IMG/VR virus record: IMGVR_UViG_2684622669_000012
Coordinates: 1 to 15,851 of that record
Strand: one strand, 5' to 3'
DNA from: a virus
Lineage: Duplodnaviria; Heunggongvirae; Uroviricota; Caudoviricetes
DNA length: 15,851 nucleotides
Part shown: in pieces, positions 8,022-14,753 of the stretch
Layout: every line of letters begins with the position of its first letter
Position numbering within the stretch: position 1 is the first letter of the stretch
Translations under genes and position numbers: made by a program
The notes under the pieces: model-generated
The model's database searches: none
What the model was told of the DNA's origin: nothing
The model's input: the letters and a program-made list of their open reading frames with translations, nothing else

Positions 8022-8634
8022 AGGTGCACTATAATTCCACCCGTTCTGGTTTTCAATAGCTACATTCAACATTTTCTCTACCTTTCATCACCTGAGTGAA
8101 CTTTGTTGATGCGGTGCCTGGTGCCTCCAGGTGACGTTAACCAGTTAACAATTAACGCCGGATGACTCACCCATAACACTCATGTTTTTAACTGTTCCGC
8201 GTGCGCTTAGCCGCATTCACCGCATCACAAAATTCACTTTAAAAAGGGCGGCAGAGCAGTCACGGAGTAAAACTGATACCGCCAAACGCCACCAGAAAAT
8301 TGATAACAGAGGGCGTTGTAGCGGGGTTGTCACTTAAGCGTATGGTCAACCTGACAACCCGGTGTCCTCAACGGGGAAGGAATAACCCAGCCATACTTAC
8401 CGCCGCGCCATTTCGCGGAGTGCCACAACCGGAAGCGCACGGTCGAATTAAATTTAACGACACCGTACAGAGAGACCAATTTCGCCGTGCGCTTTCGCGT
8501 TATGCCCTGGCTTTTCAGGGATATATCCTTTCAGTAAACTGTCAGTACCGGATTCTTATCCGTGTCCGGCGCACGACCACACGTGACAGCGTGTTGGTCT
8601 CCATTTTTAACCCAGAACCTCAATGGAGGATAAA

Positions 8635-8844: not shown

Positions 8845-9495
8845 TTACCAGTCAATCCAGAGCGGACCGTGTTCAGCGTAAATATAACTGTACACATCCA
8901 GATTATATTTGTGGTCTGTTAAGAACAGGCCGCAAATATATGCCGAAGCTTCCAGGGCAGCGGCTCTGTTACTGAATAACCATGTAGCAACATTCCAGCG
9001 TTTTTCTGCATCCCAGTCTTTCTCAAGGCCTGATACCATGAAGAAACCGTTAGTGTTGCCATCAAATAATTCTGTTTCCAGATTTTTAAGCAATGCCTGA
9101 TGGACTCTTGCCAGGTATTCCGCCGGAATTTCGCCACGAATTCTGATGAGATTGTCATAAACAAACATGTTCCCCGCATATGGCGATTCTTCTTTCTTGT
9201 TTTTTAAACCAGCATCATGAGCAAACTGATCAATTTCTTCTTCCGTTGGTTTCGTATTGATGTTTTGCGCTGTCGTTTCTGCAATTTTATTTGCCACACT
9301 CTCTGAGTCGTGTTTATTTACAGACGCACAGAAATACAATCCGGTAAACGCATCGCGCACATTACGAGCCATATTATCAGTGTCTTTTTTCGTTACCGAT
9401 TCCAATGCAAGTTCGTTCAGACGATGACGAAGTGTGTGTGCTGCAATCTCCTGGATTGAAGTAGGTAAATCTTTAAATTCCATCGTCAACCTCAT
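8845..9495 (-). CDS. Hypothetical protein (216 aa) of unknown function; accessory (moron) candidate
   Basis: Long clean ORF; start ATG overlaps the TGA stop of the upstream 50-aa gene (TGATG); alternative start 4 codons in has a GAGG RBS. No motif I can assign; soluble, acidic, no obvious TM segment. Confidence 0.7.
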   Translation of the reverse strand: MRLTMEFKDLPTSIQEIAAHTLRHRLNELALESVTKKDTDNMARNVRDAFTGLYFCASVNKHDSESVANKIAETTAQNINTKPTEEEIDQFAHDAGLKNKKEESPYAGNMFVYDNLIRIRGEIPAEYLARVHQALLKNLETELFDGNTNGFFMVSGLEKDWDAEKRWNVATWLFSNRAAALEASAYICGLFLTDHKYNLDVYSYIYAEHGPLWIDW

Positions 9496-9647
9496 CAGTC
9501 AGAGTTTCTTGCTAACCAGCGATGCGCGCCAGCTTCGGTTTTAAACGTTTTACTTTTGGTATACGTCATCGCGGTGAACGTGCCGTCCTGGTTGGGAAAC
9601 ACGCCGTACACCAGAGATTCGTTGTTGCCAAGATCGATAGTATCCAT
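9495..9647 (-). CDS. YdaF/YdfA-like small phage protein (50 aa)
   Basis: Below the 60-aa ORF-track cutoff. ATG at 9647 with GAGG 5 nt upstream; product MDTIDLGNNESLVYGVFPNQDGTFTAMTYTKSKTFKTEAGAHRWLARNSD resembles the small proteins encoded just downstream of the repressor in Rac (ydaF) and Qin (ydfA), from memory. Confidence 0.65.
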   Translation of the reverse strand: MDTIDLGNNESLVYGVFPNQDGTFTAMTYTKSKTFKTEAGAHRWLARNSD

Positions 9648-9771
9648 GCTGACCTCATTTCCCCTTAACGCCGGGGGAGCGGAACTAAGACCTGTCGCAC
9701 CGTTGTGCTTTGATGGAATACATTGCTCTCTTTAGGTGAACAAAAGTCAACATGATGAATACGTAAAAAAC

Positions 9772-9794
9772 AAAAAAAACCGCCTTGTGGCGGT
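9772..9794 (-). terminator. Rho-independent terminator downstream of the repressor gene
   Basis: Minus strand reads ACCGCC-acaa-GGCGGT followed by 8 T; lies 22 bp past the repressor stop. Confidence 0.6.
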
Positions 9795-9815
9795 ATGATT
9801 CTGTAAAATAAAGAA

Positions 9816-10205
9816 TTATTTTTGTCGTGTTATTGGGTCGACGTATTCTGAGTAAAATTCAGTCAGTTTTTGGAGTCGCATTTGAAAAGCTGCCAGCATA
9901 TTTCTACGTTCTACAGGTGGCAGGTTTCTGTAAACATCAAGCAGGGCCTTCTCGTCATCATCAAGCGCCTCTCTATTTGTCTCTTCTTTCCCTGTCAGTA
10001 GCCAAGAAAGGGAAACGTTTGTGGCTTCTGCAATTTTGGCTGCGGAATCTTTACTGATTGTTCCTCTTTTTTTCCATGCGTTGACTGATGAACGACCTAC
10101 ACCAGCGATACGCGCTAAATCTGAACCACTTAAATGATGCTGTTGAGAGATCGTATCTAACCTTTCTGCTAGCGGGGTGTCGTATTGCTTTTTTCTCATG
10201 TCCAT
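9816..10205 (-). CDS. Prophage repressor, Cro/C1-type HTH (XRE family), short form without S24 peptidase domain
   Basis: 129 aa; HTH at LSGSDLARIAGVGRSSVNAWKKRG; divergent from the cro-like gene; far too short to include a LexA-like autocleavage domain. Confidence 0.8.
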   Translation of the reverse strand: MDMRKKQYDTPLAERLDTISQQHHLSGSDLARIAGVGRSSVNAWKKRGTISKDSAAKIAEATNVSLSWLLTGKEETNREALDDDEKALLDVYRNLPPVERRNMLAAFQMRLQKLTEFYSEYVDPITRQK

Positions 10206-10308
10206 TTGGCAATTATAACCGTTCAGTGAACACTAACAATTCCTCGAGGTGTTGACTTATGTTCGCTTTAAGTGAACAATTATTGTGGTTAGTTGAACTG
10301 GAGGTTGT
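10206..10308. promoter_or_regulatory. Divergent promoter/operator region (pRM-like leftward, pR-like rightward)
   Basis: Minus strand: TTGTTA - 16 nt - TATAAT ending 6 nt before the repressor ATG, implying a leaderless or near-leaderless mRNA. Plus strand: TTGACT - 17 nt - AACAAT upstream of the cro-like gene. Repeated AGTGAACA motifs at 10236-10248 and 10274-10286, including the palindrome GTTCAGTGAAC. Confidence 0.6.
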
Positions 10309-10584
10309 ATGACAGCATTGGACAAAGCAATAAAGATTGCTGGTGGTATTCGTCCGCTAGGGCGTGCAATAGGGGCTTGGCCATCTCAAATACACAAATG
10401 GGCAAATGAATACAATGGTCGAGTGCCGACGGGAGAACGGGTTCGTCAAATTTATATTGCAACTGGGGTTACTCCTCATGAATTGCGACCAGATTTATAC
10501 CCGAATCCAACTGACGGGTTGCCTGCTGGAGATAAGGCTAACACACCAAATACACCGGAGTTGATTCATGAAAATCAAGCATGA
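10309..10584 (+). CDS. ydaS: Cro-like HTH regulator, YdaS family
   Basis: 91 aa; GGAGG RBS; contains the YdaS-type motif (ERVRQIYIATGVTPHELRPDLYP) as recalled from Rac YdaS; first gene rightward of the operator region. Confidence 0.75.
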   Translation: MTALDKAIKIAGGIRPLGRAIGAWPSQIHKWANEYNGRVPTGERVRQIYIATGVTPHELRPDLYPNPTDGLPAGDKANTPNTPELIHENQA

Positions 10585-10993
10585 ACACATCCGCATGGCG
10601 ATGAATGCCTGGGCGCGTCCTGATGGCGAAAAAGTTCCAGCAGCTGGAATAACCCAGGCTTATTTTGAGTTGGGTATGACGTTTCCTGAACTGTATGACG
10701 AAAGCCATCCGGAAGCTCTGGCTCGCAATACTCAGAAAATTTTCCGCTGGGTGGAGAAAGATACTCCTGATGCGGTTAAAAAAATTCAGGCGCTGTTACC
10801 AGCGATCGAAAAGGCAATGCCACCTTTGCTGGTGGCCAGAATGCGCAGCCACAGTTCAGCTTATTTTCGGGAGCTGGTGGAGACGCGGGAGCGACTGGTG
10901 AGAGACGCTGATGATTTTGTCGCAGTGGCAATCGCCGGTTTCAATCAGATGAACCGTGGTGGCCCGGCAGGAAATGCTGTGGCAGTACATTGA
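10568..10993 (+). CDS. ydaT: YdaT-like protein (CII-position regulator/toxin family)
   Basis: 141 aa; starts MKIKHEHI as Rac YdaT does (memory); overlaps the ydaS-like gene by 17 nt. Confidence 0.75.
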   Translation: MKIKHEHIRMAMNAWARPDGEKVPAAGITQAYFELGMTFPELYDESHPEALARNTQKIFRWVEKDTPDAVKKIQALLPAIEKAMPPLLVARMRSHSSAYFRELVETRERLVRDADDFVAVAIAGFNQMNRGGPAGNAVAVH

Positions 10994-11064
10994 CTGACAA
11001 TAGCCATATCGAATCGCTTCCGGCAACTCGTGAGTAAAAAGATTCGGTATCAGAAGAGGTGAGT

Positions 11065-12135
11065 ATGGCTAACGCCTGGCTCAGATTATGGCATGACATG
11101 CCAAATGACCCTAAGTGGCGAACAATTGCCAGGGTGTCAGGGCAGCCAATTGCAACAGTGATGGCAGTGTATATCCACCTCCTGGTGAGTGCGTCACGAA
11201 ATGTCACGCGAGGTCACATTGATGTCACGACAGAAGATTTGGCAAGTGCGCTCGACGTGACAGAAGAGGTAATTGATTCAATTTTGCAGACGATGCAGGG
11301 GCGGGTACTTGATGGTGATTTAATCACTGGATGGGAAAAACGCCAGGTGCTTAAAGAGGACAACGGCAATATTTCGCAAACCGCAAAATCTCCTGCAGAG
11401 CGCAAGAGGGCGCAGCGAGAGAGGGAAAGAAAGCGGGAACAAAATGGCGATTGTCACGGCGCGTCACGAAATGTCACGCACATGTCACGACGAGTCACGA
11501 CAGATAAAGATACAGATAAAGATACAGATCAAGAAGATCAAAACACTATGGTCCATGGCGTAAAAAACGCCACGAACCAGGCAGGGGATGTTCAGACCGT
11601 CAATCCTGGTCAGCCAGCAGGCACGACACCGGAAGCCGATTCAGCGTATGCGCTGAAAGCCGATTCGGGCGCTGTGCAGCAGGTGATGACCGGAAGGCCG
11701 GAGCAATCACACCAACTGCAGCAGCCTGAAGCCGATTCCGCCATTCAGCGGGAAGCCGATCGGGTAGTCCCGGAAAACACCGGGCAGCCTGTGGGACGAG
11801 TGGATTATCCGGATGTGTTCGAACAGGTCTGGCGGGAGTACCCGTTGCGTGCCGGAGCAAACCCGAAGAAATCCGCTTTCAGTGCCTGGAAGGCCAGATT
11901 ACGCGAGGGGGTGCCACCAGAGGCCATGCTGGATGGCGTGAGGCGTTACGCAAGATATCTGGCGGCTACCGGGAAAACGGGAACGGAATTTGTTCAGCGA
12001 GCGACGACCTTTTTTGGACCGGACCGGAATTTTGAAAACCCCTGGTTGCTCCCGGTAAGCGGCACGAACAACCAGCGTTGTGTGAATCATATTTCTGAAC
12101 CGGATACCGAAATTCCGCCGGGCTTCAGGGGGTAA
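11065..12135 (+). CDS. Replication initiation / replisome organizer protein (O-like) with internal origin iterons
   Basis: ATG at 11065 after GAGGTG (ORF track uses GTG at 11059). Two GTCACG iteron arrays inside the gene encode repeated ASRNVT..VTT peptide segments, followed by an A/T-rich tandem repeat; position is immediately after the cII-like gene. Confidence 0.7.
   Translation: MANAWLRLWHDMPNDPKWRTIARVSGQPIATVMAVYIHLLVSASRNVTRGHIDVTTEDLASALDVTEEVIDSILQTMQGRVLDGDLITGWEKRQVLKEDNGNISQTAKSPAERKRAQRERERKREQNGDCHGASRNVTHMSRRVTTDKDTDKDTDQEDQNTMVHGVKNATNQAGDVQTVNPGQPAGTTPEADSAYALKADSGAVQQVMTGRPEQSHQLQQPEADSAIQREADRVVPENTGQPVGRVDYPDVFEQVWREYPLRAGANPKKSAFSAWKARLREGVPPEAMLDGVRRYARYLAATGKTGTEFVQRATTFFGPDRNFENPWLLPVSGTNNQRCVNHISEPDTEIPPGFRG
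11193..11229. repeat. Iteron array 1: four GTCAC(G) repeats at ~10-11 bp phasing
   Basis: GTCACG at 11193, 11203, 11224 and GTCAC at 11213. Confidence 0.6.
11463..11526. repeat. Iteron array 2 (four GTCACG repeats) plus adjacent A/T-rich 12-bp tandem repeat; candidate ori
   Basis: GTCACG at 11463, 11473, 11484, 11494; first 19 nt identical to array 1 (GCGTCACGAAATGTCACGC). Followed by GATAAAGATACA x2 (11503-11526). Confidence 0.6.
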
Positions 12136-13998: not shown

Positions 13999-14209
13999 TT
14001 TCATATTGGCGAGGTAACGGGAGTTAAGTAGAATGGCTGCGGGTGCTTGAGGCTATCTGTCTCAGGCATGAACACCAAAGGCAGATAGAGAAAAGCCCCA
14101 GTTAACATTCGGCGTCCTGCAAGACGCTTAACATTAATCTGAGGCCCAATCTATGTCTCACAAATGTAGGTTAGCCTCTTACGTGCCGAAAGGCAAGGAG
14201 AAGCAGGCT

Positions 14210-14365
14210 ATGAAGCAGCAAAAGGCGATGTTAATCGCCCTGATCGTCATCTGTTTAACCGTCATAGTGACGGCACTGGTAACGAGGAAAGACCTCTGCG
14301 AGGTACGAATCCGAACCGGCCAGACGGAGGTCGCTGTCTTCACAGTTTACGAACCTGAGGAGTAA
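14210..14365 (+). CDS. hokD: Hok/Gef-family type I toxin (membrane peptide)
   Basis: MKQQKAMLIALIVICLTVIVTALVTRKDLCEVRIRTGQTEVAVFTVYEPEE: near-identical to HokD/RelF as I recall it (one A/V difference). AAGGAG RBS; the ORF-track entry adds an in-frame 19-codon upstream extension. Confidence 0.9.
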   Translation: MKQQKAMLIALIVICLTVIVTALVTRKDLCEVRIRTGQTEVAVFTVYEPEE

Positions 14366-14585: not shown

Positions 14586-14753
14586 ATGAATGATAAGGAA
14601 TTAATTGCTGCGCTTTCTGTACCGGGTAGTTATGAGGTGATAACCCTTGCAAATGGAGAGTTTATTGTAATGCCGTTACCACCCGACGCCATTCTGATCA
14701 CTAAAGAATCTCACATGGATTCTGTCAGCCACTTCTGTATTAAAGAAGACTAA
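14586..14753 (+). CDS. Hypothetical small protein (55 aa)
   Basis: ATG-initiated ORF below the ORF-track cutoff; weak RBS (AGGG 9 nt upstream); no family recognised. Confidence 0.4.
   Translation: MNDKELIAALSVPGSYEVITLANGEFIVMPLPPDAILITKESHMDSVSHFCIKED

Follow-up and report, generated by a model that had tools for sequence, protein, structure and literature searches.

A probable immunity switch with a short, non-cleavable repressor and leaderless repressor mRNA in a Rac/Qin/CP-933P-like prophage of Escherichia coli

Related switches and the locus under study

Short immunity repressors that lack a self-cleavage domain are common in prophages of Escherichia coli and Salmonella, including those that carry virulence genes, and the route by which such repressors are induced decides when the virulence genes and the phages spread. 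Here, we analyzed a candidate switch of this kind, in which a gene for a repressor of 129 amino acids (aa) is divergent from genes of the YdaS and YdaT families, at positions 9816–10993 of a 15,851-nucleotide (nt) stretch of viral DNA (IMG/VR record IMGVR_UViG_2684622669_000012, Caudoviricetes; referred to below as the window).

The closest characterized system is the switch of prophage CP-933P (Sp12) of E. coli O157:H7 (PMC8630535, PMC9986795). In this prophage, PaaR2 and YdaS bind OR and repress PL, the paaR2 mRNA was found to be leaderless by 5' RACE, N-terminal sequencing and mass spectrometry, and YdaT activates the promoter PRE (PMC8630535). CP-933P YdaT is a tetramer with a POU-like helix-turn-helix (HTH) domain and a CII equivalent, and footprinting placed it on TTGATT-N6-AATCAA, where ydaS ends (PMC9986795). 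Similarly, YdaT of Rac acts through a reverse promoter inside ydaS to activate the gene of the repressor (PMC11879457). With regard to the repressor protein itself, the closest class is that of DicA (Qin) and GfoR/GtgR (Gifsy). Gifsy repressors stay intact after mitomycin C treatment and are inactivated by antirepressors that act in trans between prophages, and both DicA and RacR have been listed as relatives of these repressors (PMC3121763). DicA is antagonized by Rem and also switches spontaneously (PMC10448788), and O157 prophages with repressors lacking the peptidase domain were not inducible by mitomycin (PMC2669165).

The features of the switch in the window are as follows, promoters and operators being predictions.

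9722–9750, minus strand: PL-like promoter (-35 TTGACT at 9750–9745, 17-nt spacer, -10 AGCAAT at 9727–9722)
9724–9742: left operator OL, TGCTCTCTTTAGGTGAACA, inside PL and behind the repressor terminator
9779–9794, minus strand: intrinsic terminator of the monocistronic repressor transcript, ACCGCCACAAGGCGGT followed by T8
9816–10205, minus strand: immunity repressor, 129 aa; CI-type HTH at the N-terminus, helical C-terminal domain of DicA/GfoR type (Pfam, PHROGs)
10212–10239, minus strand: PRM-like repressor promoter (-35 TTGTTA at 10239–10234, 16-nt spacer, -10 TATAAT at 10217–10212; promoter scan)
10221–10231: operator-like short palindrome GTTCAGTGAAC with half-site AGTGAACA, in the spacer of the repressor promoter; direct repeat of 10268–10278
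10252–10280, plus strand: PR-like promoter of ydaS/ydaT (-35 TTGACT at 10252–10257, 17-nt spacer, -10 AACAAT at 10275–10280)
10260–10278: main right operator, 19-bp imperfect palindrome TGTTCGCTTTAAGTGAACA, in the PR spacer with a 4-nt overlap with the -10 hexamer
10309–10584, plus strand: YdaS-family Cro-like HTH protein, 91 aa (Pfam PF15943, 7.2e-10; phrog_35, 5.8e-25)
10561–10578: candidate YdaT operator OM, TTGATTCATGAAAATCAA, spanning the end of ydaS and the start of ydaT; exact TTGATT-N6-AATCAA (1 found, 0.10 expected)
10568–10993, plus strand: YdaT-family CII equivalent, 141 aa, with a POU-like HTH and a tetramerizing helix (PF06254; phrog_163 'CII-like activator', 5e-45)

We conclude that this locus very probably acts as the immunity (lysis-lysogeny) switch of a lambdoid prophage that resembles Rac, Qin and CP-933P and is located at the tRNA-Ser/mtfA site of E. 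coli, with a non-cleavable repressor and a leaderless repressor mRNA. The window DNA is E. coli chromosome, its immunity region being 99.8% identical to that of strain EC12, and the prophage adjoins mtfA and tRNA-Ser (Rfam tRNA at 2966–3052; EC12 annotation). As in lambdoid immunity regions, the switch genes sit between early-left genes (recombination, kil, xis, int) and replication genes. The repressor allele was found in 82 of 5,426 complete E. coli genomes, and only a subset of the O157 genomes had it.

Comparison with CP-933P revealed a common architecture. In both loci, a short repressor without a peptidase domain is divergent from ydaS-ydaT across an intergenic region of about 100 bp that contains operators and promoters placed back to back, 6 nt separate the -10 hexamer from the ATG of the repressor gene, and a copy of the PR promoter/operator serves as PL. 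Moreover, the YdaT proteins are 83% identical, and the OM site at the ydaS/ydaT junction is the same. In contrast, the repressor and YdaS are unrelated in sequence between the two loci, and the operators are of the GTGAACA type in the window and GTTTAGTAA in CP-933P. Besides, ydaS and ydaT overlap by 4 nt there and by 17 nt in the window, and the paaA2-parE2 toxin-antitoxin pair that follows the CP-933P repressor has no counterpart in the window, where an intrinsic terminator is found and no toxin-antitoxin genes.

The DicA/GfoR class is similar in the repressor, which in all cases has about 130 aa, an HTH at the N-terminus and a helical C-terminal domain with a common sequence motif, but no Ala-Gly/S24 module. 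Qin also has a DUF1391 gene and DicF downstream in its left operon, and the Gifsy-1 repressor gene shows the arrangement TAAAAT, 6 nt, ATG. However, the identity of the repressors is only 22–25%, and neither a Rem/GfoA homologue nor a LexA box was found in the window. Furthermore, DicC of Qin is not similar to the YdaS-like protein, and dicC is followed by the small YdfX, whereas the window has a full-length YdaT. K-12 Rac shares the gene order, the tandem of YdaS and YdaT families divergent from the repressor, and an operator motif duplicated at OR and upstream of the ydaG/ydaF operon. The original prediction, which was made from the sequence of the window, had assigned the locus to the RacR/YdaS/YdaT type; this holds for the two gene families, YdaS and YdaT, which diverge from the gene of a short HTH repressor, but not for the repressor itself. 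RacR has 158 aa and only 28 HTH residues of it align, 12 of them identical, and RacR orthology was rejected; in addition, Rac operators are of the GCCTAA type, and racR has a GGAG Shine-Dalgarno sequence and is thus not leaderless. Finally, the logic and map position are those of lambda, including, probably, a leaderless repressor mRNA, operators at both PR and PL, and a CII-type activator at the cro/cII junction. Unlike in lambda, the window repressor has no S24 autocleavage domain, YdaT is a POU-like tetramer unrelated to CII, and each main operator lies inside a promoter spacer; a lambda-type OR2 would not fit between the two -35 hexamers, whose distance is only 12 bp.

Since all headline features (a short non-cleavable repressor, a leaderless message, the OL/OR duplication and the need for an antirepressor) have been published for relatives, the locus is not new as a concept, and the window adds a new allele. 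It leaves the current picture unchanged. Its practical value is that it can be used to examine how DicA-class repressors are inactivated when they have no LexA-controlled antirepressor nearby, and what the binding partners are of Rha/AnrP-type proteins that are gated by IsrK and C4 RNAs.

Proteins and control sites of the switch

The architecture of the window was compared with that of seven additional loci whose repressors are 56–99% identical; three of these are Salmonella loci, two belong to Enterobacter, and O157:H7 and Cronobacter each provided one. Gene content, motif positions, homologies and allele conservation are observations made directly on these sequences. With its 129 aa, the window repressor is, as had been predicted, too short for an S24 domain. 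A domain search returned only HTH families (Phage_CI_repr, 1.7e-12; HTH_3, 2.6e-08), Pfam gave no Peptidase_S24 match in the repressor at E<=0.01, and the protein stops 55 residues past the HTH. The S24 domain was also absent from all 83 database relatives of the repressor, for which precomputed Pfam assignments comprise HTH families only; intact relatives have 126–133 aa, with few longer gene calls of up to 172 aa. The sole Ala-Gly pair of the repressor, at residues 34–35, lies within the HTH. The protein is 25% identical to DicA over 110 aa (E 3e-6, residues 30–129) and also aligns with Gifsy-1 GfoR/GtgR (E 1e-6, residues 12–126), and both alignments take in the C-terminal segment L-x-x-x-E-x-x-L-L-x-x-[FY]-x-x-L-P. 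Judged by this similarity, C-terminal segment included, the repressor is a member of the DicA/GfoR class of short repressors described in PMC3121763. Homology to PaaR2 was rejected, BLASTP giving no match.

The C-terminal 37 aa of the repressor (residues 93–129; 9816–9930) are nearly invariant across alleles that are only 56–74% identical overall and have different operators. The tail reads LPPVERRNMLAAFQMRLQ..DPxTRQK. This pattern of conservation suggests a common partner or a common oligomerization surface. A single-sequence structure model of the repressor was poor (predicted local distance difference test score 52) and was not used. We consider RecA-stimulated self-cleavage of this repressor very unlikely, as neither it nor any of its 83 relatives has an S24 domain, Gifsy repressors remain intact after mitomycin C, and O157 prophages with peptidase-less repressors were not inducible by mitomycin. 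The last point, which concerns Sp6, Sp9 and Sp10, holds for the class and not demonstrably for this allele, which only a subset of the O157 genomes carries.

The YdaS-like gene has a Shine-Dalgarno sequence, GGAGG, at 10300–10304, and its product is 30% identical to K-12 YdaS and matches Cro proteins in PDB (3BD1 and 5W8Y, E 1e-3 to 2e-4). Homology to CP-933P YdaS was rejected, again for lack of any BLASTP match. The YdaT-like protein is 33% identical to K-12 YdaT, and its PDB matches are 3C4R (E 1e-87, 94% identity) and 8BT1 (E 5e-78). We could reproduce the 17-nt overlap of the two genes that had been noticed earlier (10568–10584, from the ydaT start to the ydaS end), and the ydaT start, MKIKHEHI, agrees with those of K-12 and CP-933P YdaT. 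In addition, the PRE-fragment primer of Jurenas et al., ATGCGGATGTGTTCATGCTT, is the exact reverse complement of 10577–10596. In line with the described systems, we regard YdaS as an analogue of Cro and YdaT as one of CII, and neither as a toxin.

Instead of a developmental switch, the locus might be viewed as a module of toxin-antitoxin-like or "toxin-repressor" type, with YdaS and YdaT as toxins that the repressor silences. The Pfam family names YdaS_toxin and YdaT_toxin point in this direction, and so do two 2017 mSphere papers, according to which Rac ydaS/ydaT are toxic when racR is silenced (PMC5700373, PMC5700377); the original prediction also started from toxic ydaS/ydaT. This premise is outdated, as the genes are now described as Cro and CII equivalents (PMC5917428, PMC8630535, PMC9986795, PMC11879457), and in three of these studies the toxin interpretation was explicitly rebutted (PMC5917428, PMC8630535, PMC11879457). 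Moreover, YdaT is a DNA-binding tetramer with a defined operator (PMC9986795) and the window contains that site, YdaS resembles Cro, and the genes have the early-left operon on one side and the replication genes on the other, with OL and OR duplicated. We therefore regard a toxin module as highly improbable and return to the immunity switch.

Within 9400–11200, the promoter scan detected only two sigma-70-like sites, and the 103-bp intergenic region contains both: the minus strand has TTGTTA-16-TATAAT and the plus strand TTGACT-17-AACAAT. The former ends 6 bases before the repressor ATG at 10205 (10211–10206, TTGCCA), in agreement with the original prediction, and no Shine-Dalgarno sequence is present. 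Among the eight alleles, the gap between -10 and ATG is 6 nt in seven and 7 nt in the eighth. The gap bases vary (TTGGCA, AACGGA, TCACTA, GCTTCG, TTCTCA etc.) and none of them forms a Shine-Dalgarno sequence, and the -10 hexamers are TATAAT, TATACT, TAAAAT or TACAAT. The same geometry is found in paaR2 (GATAAT, 6 nt, ATG), as well as in the Gifsy-1 repressor gene mentioned above. By analogy with paaR2, the first transcribed base of the repressor gene is probably the A of its ATG (10205), so that the mRNA would have no leader, and the earlier suggestion of such a message is the best reading of a gap kept at 6–7 nt. Public annotations differ on the start of the repressor (10199–10205), which is given either as 129 aa from Met1 or as 127 aa from Met3.

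An mRNA with a leader would be expected if translation began at Met3 (ATG at 10199) on a short leader, or if the main transcript came from another promoter. NCBI gives many homologues as 127 aa from Met3, and the Enterobacter and Cronobacter alleles lack the Met-Asp extension. However, the -10 hexamer tracks the first ATG at 6–7 nt in every allele, with or without the extension, across variable bases that hold no Shine-Dalgarno sequence, and the identical geometry is proven to be leaderless for paaR2. A leader thus appears improbable, and because alleles with and without the Met-Asp extension alike keep the distance between -10 and ATG, this spacing favors Met1, and thus 129 aa, as the start of the repressor.

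With regard to operators, the 19-bp element TGTTCNCTTTARGTGAACA is present in the window only at 9724–9742 and 10260–10278 (0.03 expected; none of 200 shuffles reached this count), that is, upstream of the ydaF-like operon and between the divergent genes, where operator motifs had been proposed. Half-site AGTGAACA occurs at 10225–10232 and 10271–10278, and GGTGAACA at 9735–9742; the 7-mer GTGAACA alone was not enriched in the window (4 found, 2.2 expected). The similarity extends beyond the operators, as the 31-nt promoter/operator cassettes 9722–9752 and 10250–10280 form an inverted pair (81%). A third, shorter operator copy, TTCAGTGAACA (10222–10232), sits in the spacer of the repressor promoter, and the palindrome there (10221–10231) is a predicted autorepression or Cro-target site, analogous to OR3. 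In other alleles, the equivalent position bears their own half-site, AGCCnnnGGCTAA. A possible third, weak operator, GTTAGTTGAAC, lies at 10288–10298, or approximately +1 to +12 of the PR transcript; it matches 10221–10231 at 8 of 11 positions, and allele-specific half-sites were found at this place in three other loci (L007, L009 and L013).

Some smaller motifs were also noticed. A perfect 8-bp palindrome, CCTCGAGG (10243–10250), is located exactly between the divergent -35 hexamers; the O157 allele has CCTCGTAG instead, and because the palindrome is not kept there, it is probably incidental. The motif AGTGAAC has five copies in the window (1.6 expected), including isolated half-sites at 8095–8101 (plus strand), approximately 40 nt upstream of the IsrK promoter described below, and at 7623–7629 in the Rha gene. 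These isolated copies are not among the matches to the 19-bp operator at <=3 mismatches, and a link to the repressor is unsupported.

The comparison of alleles revealed a fixed scaffold. In all eight loci, the repressor is divergent from a YdaS-family gene across 103–108 bp, and a YdaT-family gene follows ydaS in seven. PR has the form TTGACa-17-aACAAT/CAATAT in every allele, with a palindromic operator in the spacer, and an inverted PR-like cassette (PL) follows the repressor gene in each of them. A repressor terminator consisting of a CCGCC...GGCGG hairpin and a T-run was found in 7 of 8 alleles, the exception being the L014 stretch, where none was evident. The half-site differs between alleles: the window has GTGAACA in common with the O157 locus and one of the Salmonella loci, four others have GCTAAC or GGCTAA, and substitutions in the HTH run parallel to this change (e.g., Gly37 to Ser, or Lys45 to Tyr, Phe or His). 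What stays fixed is thus the distance from -10 to ATG, the placement of the operators, the terminator with PL behind it, the site for YdaT and the C-terminus of the repressor; what changes is the HTH and the operator half-site. A fixed scaffold with a co-varying HTH and half-site is the pattern expected of a heteroimmune switch family. We have not seen this conservation map of eight heteroimmune alleles or the near-invariant repressor C-terminus described before, although the literature was not searched specifically.

These features most likely act together in the following way. The repressor would bind the 19-bp operators in the spacers of the mirror-image promoters PR and PL, blocking RNA polymerase at both early promoters; PR would otherwise drive the Cro-like YdaS, the CII-like YdaT and then the replication genes, and PL the operon of DUF1391, DicF, Kil, exonuclease, xis and int. 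The repressor mRNA would start at the A of its AUG, leaderless like those of lambda cI and paaR2, and would end, as a monocistronic message, at the terminator at 9794–9779, and the half-operator in its promoter would allow the repressor or YdaS to turn this promoter down. After infection, YdaT would bind 10561–10578 and activate a leftward PRE-like promoter inside ydaS, by which repressor synthesis would be established. Derepression would have to be brought about by a protein antirepressor, by spontaneous bistable switching through YdaS, or by both.

Several points weigh against this interpretation. A PRE-like promoter was not located in the window, and the -10 hexamers of PR (AACAAT) and PL (AGCAAT) are weak. 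If transcription starts at 10205, annotation of the repressor from Met3 (127 aa) would mean a 6-nt leader. We infer DNA binding, the transcription start, non-cleavage of the repressor and activation by YdaT from homology to CP-933P, Qin, Rac and Gifsy. Of these, CP-933P is homologous in YdaT and the YdaT operator but only analogous in the repressor, YdaS and their operators; the window repressor and YdaS have no detectable similarity to PaaR2 and CP-933P YdaS.

Possible routes of derepression

Because the repressor has no S24 domain, derepression should need a route other than RecA-driven self-cleavage. One candidate inducer is encoded in the window itself. The original prediction pointed to a Rha-family gene at 7221–7775 as a possible antirepressor, and the family assignment is correct. 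The features that bear on induction are listed below.

7221–7775, minus strand: Rha-family protein, 184 aa, with a pRha domain (1–108) and a separate C-terminal domain (101–184) (Pfam Phage_pRha, 1.1e-31)
7920–7833, minus strand: C4 antisense RNA (Rfam, 80.6 bits, above gathering score)
8021–7945, minus strand: IsrK-like small RNA (Rfam, 67.2 bits, above gathering score)
8028–8056, minus strand: predicted near-consensus promoter of the cassette itself (TTGAAA at 8056–8051, 17-nt spacer, TATAGT at 8033–8028), ending 7 nt before the IsrK start at 8021
14586–14753, plus strand: small open reading frame (ORF) of function-unknown PHROG phrog_34610
14814–15092, plus strand: small ORF of function-unknown PHROG phrog_1212

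The C4 RNA family controls ant in phages P1 and P7, and their c4-icd-ant immI module is a further comparison for the IsrK/C4 cassette. In Gifsy-1, IsrK gates translation of the antirepressor-like AnrP, and AnrP raises antQ transcription (PMC4825925). Aligned with isrK-orf45 of Gifsy-1, the window cassette shows 78% column identity; both RNAs, the start context and the Shine-Dalgarno sequence are homologous to those of isrK-orf45-anrP, and the C-terminal domain of the Rha protein is of the AnrP-like kind. On the other hand, the N-domain is pRha in the window and ORF6N in Gifsy-1, the orf45 equivalent is fused in frame to Rha, and the cassette follows DicF in the early-left arm and does not adjoin the Q gene. 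The orf45 equivalent (ATG at 7916) continues into Rha without a stop, making a 231-aa fusion possible, whereas Gifsy-1 has an overlapping AUGA stop-start; the database proteins P0205 and P0210 show the same read-through before AntA- and ORF6N-type genes. A listed 283-aa ORF (7221–8072, minus strand) is an artefact of read-through across the IsrK and C4 RNAs. The cassette DNA, comprising IsrK, C4 and the first ~105 Rha codons, had matches in 209 phage records, of which many are from Stx-converting phages.

The C-terminal 84 residues of Rha recur behind N-domains of the pRha, ORF6N (AnrP-like) and AntA types and also as free proteins of ~82 aa, and they are 41–56% identical to the C-termini of ORF6N/AnrP-like proteins. 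In PHROG searches, this domain matched phrog_340, the family of Rem (1.1e-6), and phrog_2379, the family of AnrP (8e-7). Full-length homology of Rha and AnrP was rejected, as the N-domain of AnrP is ORF6N and BLASTP aligned the C-terminus only (E 0.085). A direct comparison of the Rha C-terminal domain with Rem gave no BLASTP match, and profile-profile comparison with hhalign was weak (20% probability, E 1e-3).

We considered three ways of inactivating the repressor, which are not mutually exclusive. Rha may be an antirepressor that is translated when the IsrK/C4 gate allows and whose C-domain binds the repressor C-domain and takes the repressor off its operators, resulting in RNA-gated induction independent of the SOS response. 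The two RNAs lie directly upstream of Rha with their own promoter, the homologous Gifsy-1 cassette gates translation of AnrP (PMC4825925), the C-domain is related to the C-termini of ORF6N/AnrP-like proteins and exists as stand-alone proteins, it matches the PHROG families of Rem, a proven DicA antirepressor, and of AnrP, and the near-invariant repressor C-terminus across heteroimmune alleles is as expected for a common docking surface. However, the distribution of the cassette does not follow that of the repressor. It is absent from EC12, the nearest relative, in spite of the 99.8% identical immunity region (a DicB fragment is found instead), and from the O157 prophage L003; it is apparently absent from most of the 82 complete genomes with the repressor; a contiguous stretch from Rha to the repressor occurs in none of the 5,426 complete genomes; Rha and the repressor occur together in 5 of the best 40 matches listed (H84–H88); and the cassette also adjoins other immunity types. 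The weak hhalign score against the Rem family and the missing BLASTP match count against a relation to Rem, Gifsy-1 AnrP is only 17% identical in the C-domain and has a different N-domain, no fold match was obtained for the model of the Rha C-domain, pRha proteins are inconsistently annotated, and even AnrP is not known to bind a repressor directly. Thus, the earlier suggestion gained from the IsrK/C4 cassette and the links of the C-domain and lost by the absence of Rha from most repressor-bearing prophages and of a LexA box, and we regard Rha as a rather unlikely inducer of this prophage. Alternatively, a small LexA-controlled antirepressor encoded outside the window could inactivate the repressor in the SOS response, as in Gifsy. 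The repressor falls in the GfoR/DicA class, for which this mechanism, including action in trans, was demonstrated (PMC3121763), its invariant C-terminus fits a common antirepressor, and the related prophage of EC12 carries a KilA-N protein near the lysis genes, outside the window. Against this, there is no LexA box in the 15.8-kb window: CTG-N10-CAG is absent window-wide, and CTGT-N8-ACAG (<=1 mismatch) is near no candidate gene. Also, no dinI/gfoA homologue was found downstream of the replication genes, which is their place in Gifsy phages, ORFs 14586–14753 and 14814–15092 match neither Rem nor GfoA, and O157 prophages with peptidase-less repressors are not mitomycin-inducible (PMC2669165). 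An outside antirepressor of this type also seems doubtful.

The remaining possibility is that no dedicated inducer exists and that the switch flips spontaneously or under unspecific stress in a subpopulation, through instability of the repressor and feedback by YdaS (Cro), as in Qin and CP-933P. The PaaR2/YdaS switch is bistable (PMC8630535), DicA targets are derepressed without Rem, either spontaneously or by urea or heat, with DicC being required (PMC10448788), and the window holds all parts for such a switch. The strong C-terminal conservation of the repressor across alleles would be left unexplained, and we hold this route to be possible at best.

As minor results, control by LexA within the window was examined as a candidate and rejected, the best 20-mer having 7 mismatches to the LexA consensus. 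The two small ORFs at 14586–14753 and 14814–15092 occupy the position that the antirepressor gene rem has in Qin, between hokD and the DUF968 gene; a Rem-like antirepressor at this position was rejected, as neither has similarity to Rem.

The recurrence of the C-domain raises a more general idea, which we consider quite unlikely to be correct as a whole. Rha would be a member of a group of modular, SOS-independent antirepressors that have an IsrK/C4 gate, swappable N-domains (pRha, ORF6N, AntA) and a shared C-domain also found alone, which is perhaps a distant relative of Rem and would dock on the LPPVERRNMLAAFQMRLQ...DPxTRQK tail of DicA/GfoR-class repressors. If this were true, the cassette of one prophage could induce several heteroimmune prophages in the same cell. 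We have not seen the modular C-terminal domain of IsrK/C4-gated Rha-, AnrP- and AntA-type proteins described (no specific search of the literature was made), and the idea of induction across prophages is speculative.

Neighboring genes and the PL leader

The remaining features of the window are listed below; they include the genes on both sides of the switch and the 5' leader of the PL operon.

3108–4133, minus strand: integrase (gene list, from the attachment site inwards)
4133–4336, minus strand: DUF4224 excisionase-like gene
4395–6836, minus strand: 813-aa 3'-5' exonuclease
6954–7175, minus strand: Kil
8246–8297, minus strand: DicF small RNA, full-length (Rfam, 76 bits)
8845–9495, minus strand: 216-aa protein
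9495–9647, minus strand: DUF1391 gene, ydaF/ydfA-like
9650–9718, minus strand: 5' leader of the PL operon; contains the small hairpins GCAC-N6-GUGC and CGCC-N5-GGCG and, after these, UUAAGGGG
11059–12135, plus strand: replisome organizer, after the YdaT-like gene
Between the replisome organizer and sok/hokD, plus strand: DUF977 gene
14041–14365, plus strand: sok antisense RNA/hokD type I toxin pair (Rfam sok, 117 bits)
Running past the window end, plus strand: DUF968 gene

Alignment of nine leaders revealed that the PL leader is strongly kept in the heteroimmune alleles; Rac has it as well, upstream of ydaG, and so does Qin, upstream of ydfA. Almost no covariation was seen among these nine sequences, and the leader had no Rfam match. 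It might be a nut- or put-like element or a protein-binding element.

Downstream in the same operon, dicB is absent after DicF in the window; EC12 has a DicB fragment at this place, and the window has the IsrK/C4/Rha cassette instead. In the 813-aa protein, the exonuclease region is C-terminal, according to the EC12 annotation, and is preceded by a long acidic low-complexity middle part rich in Gln, Glu and Pro.

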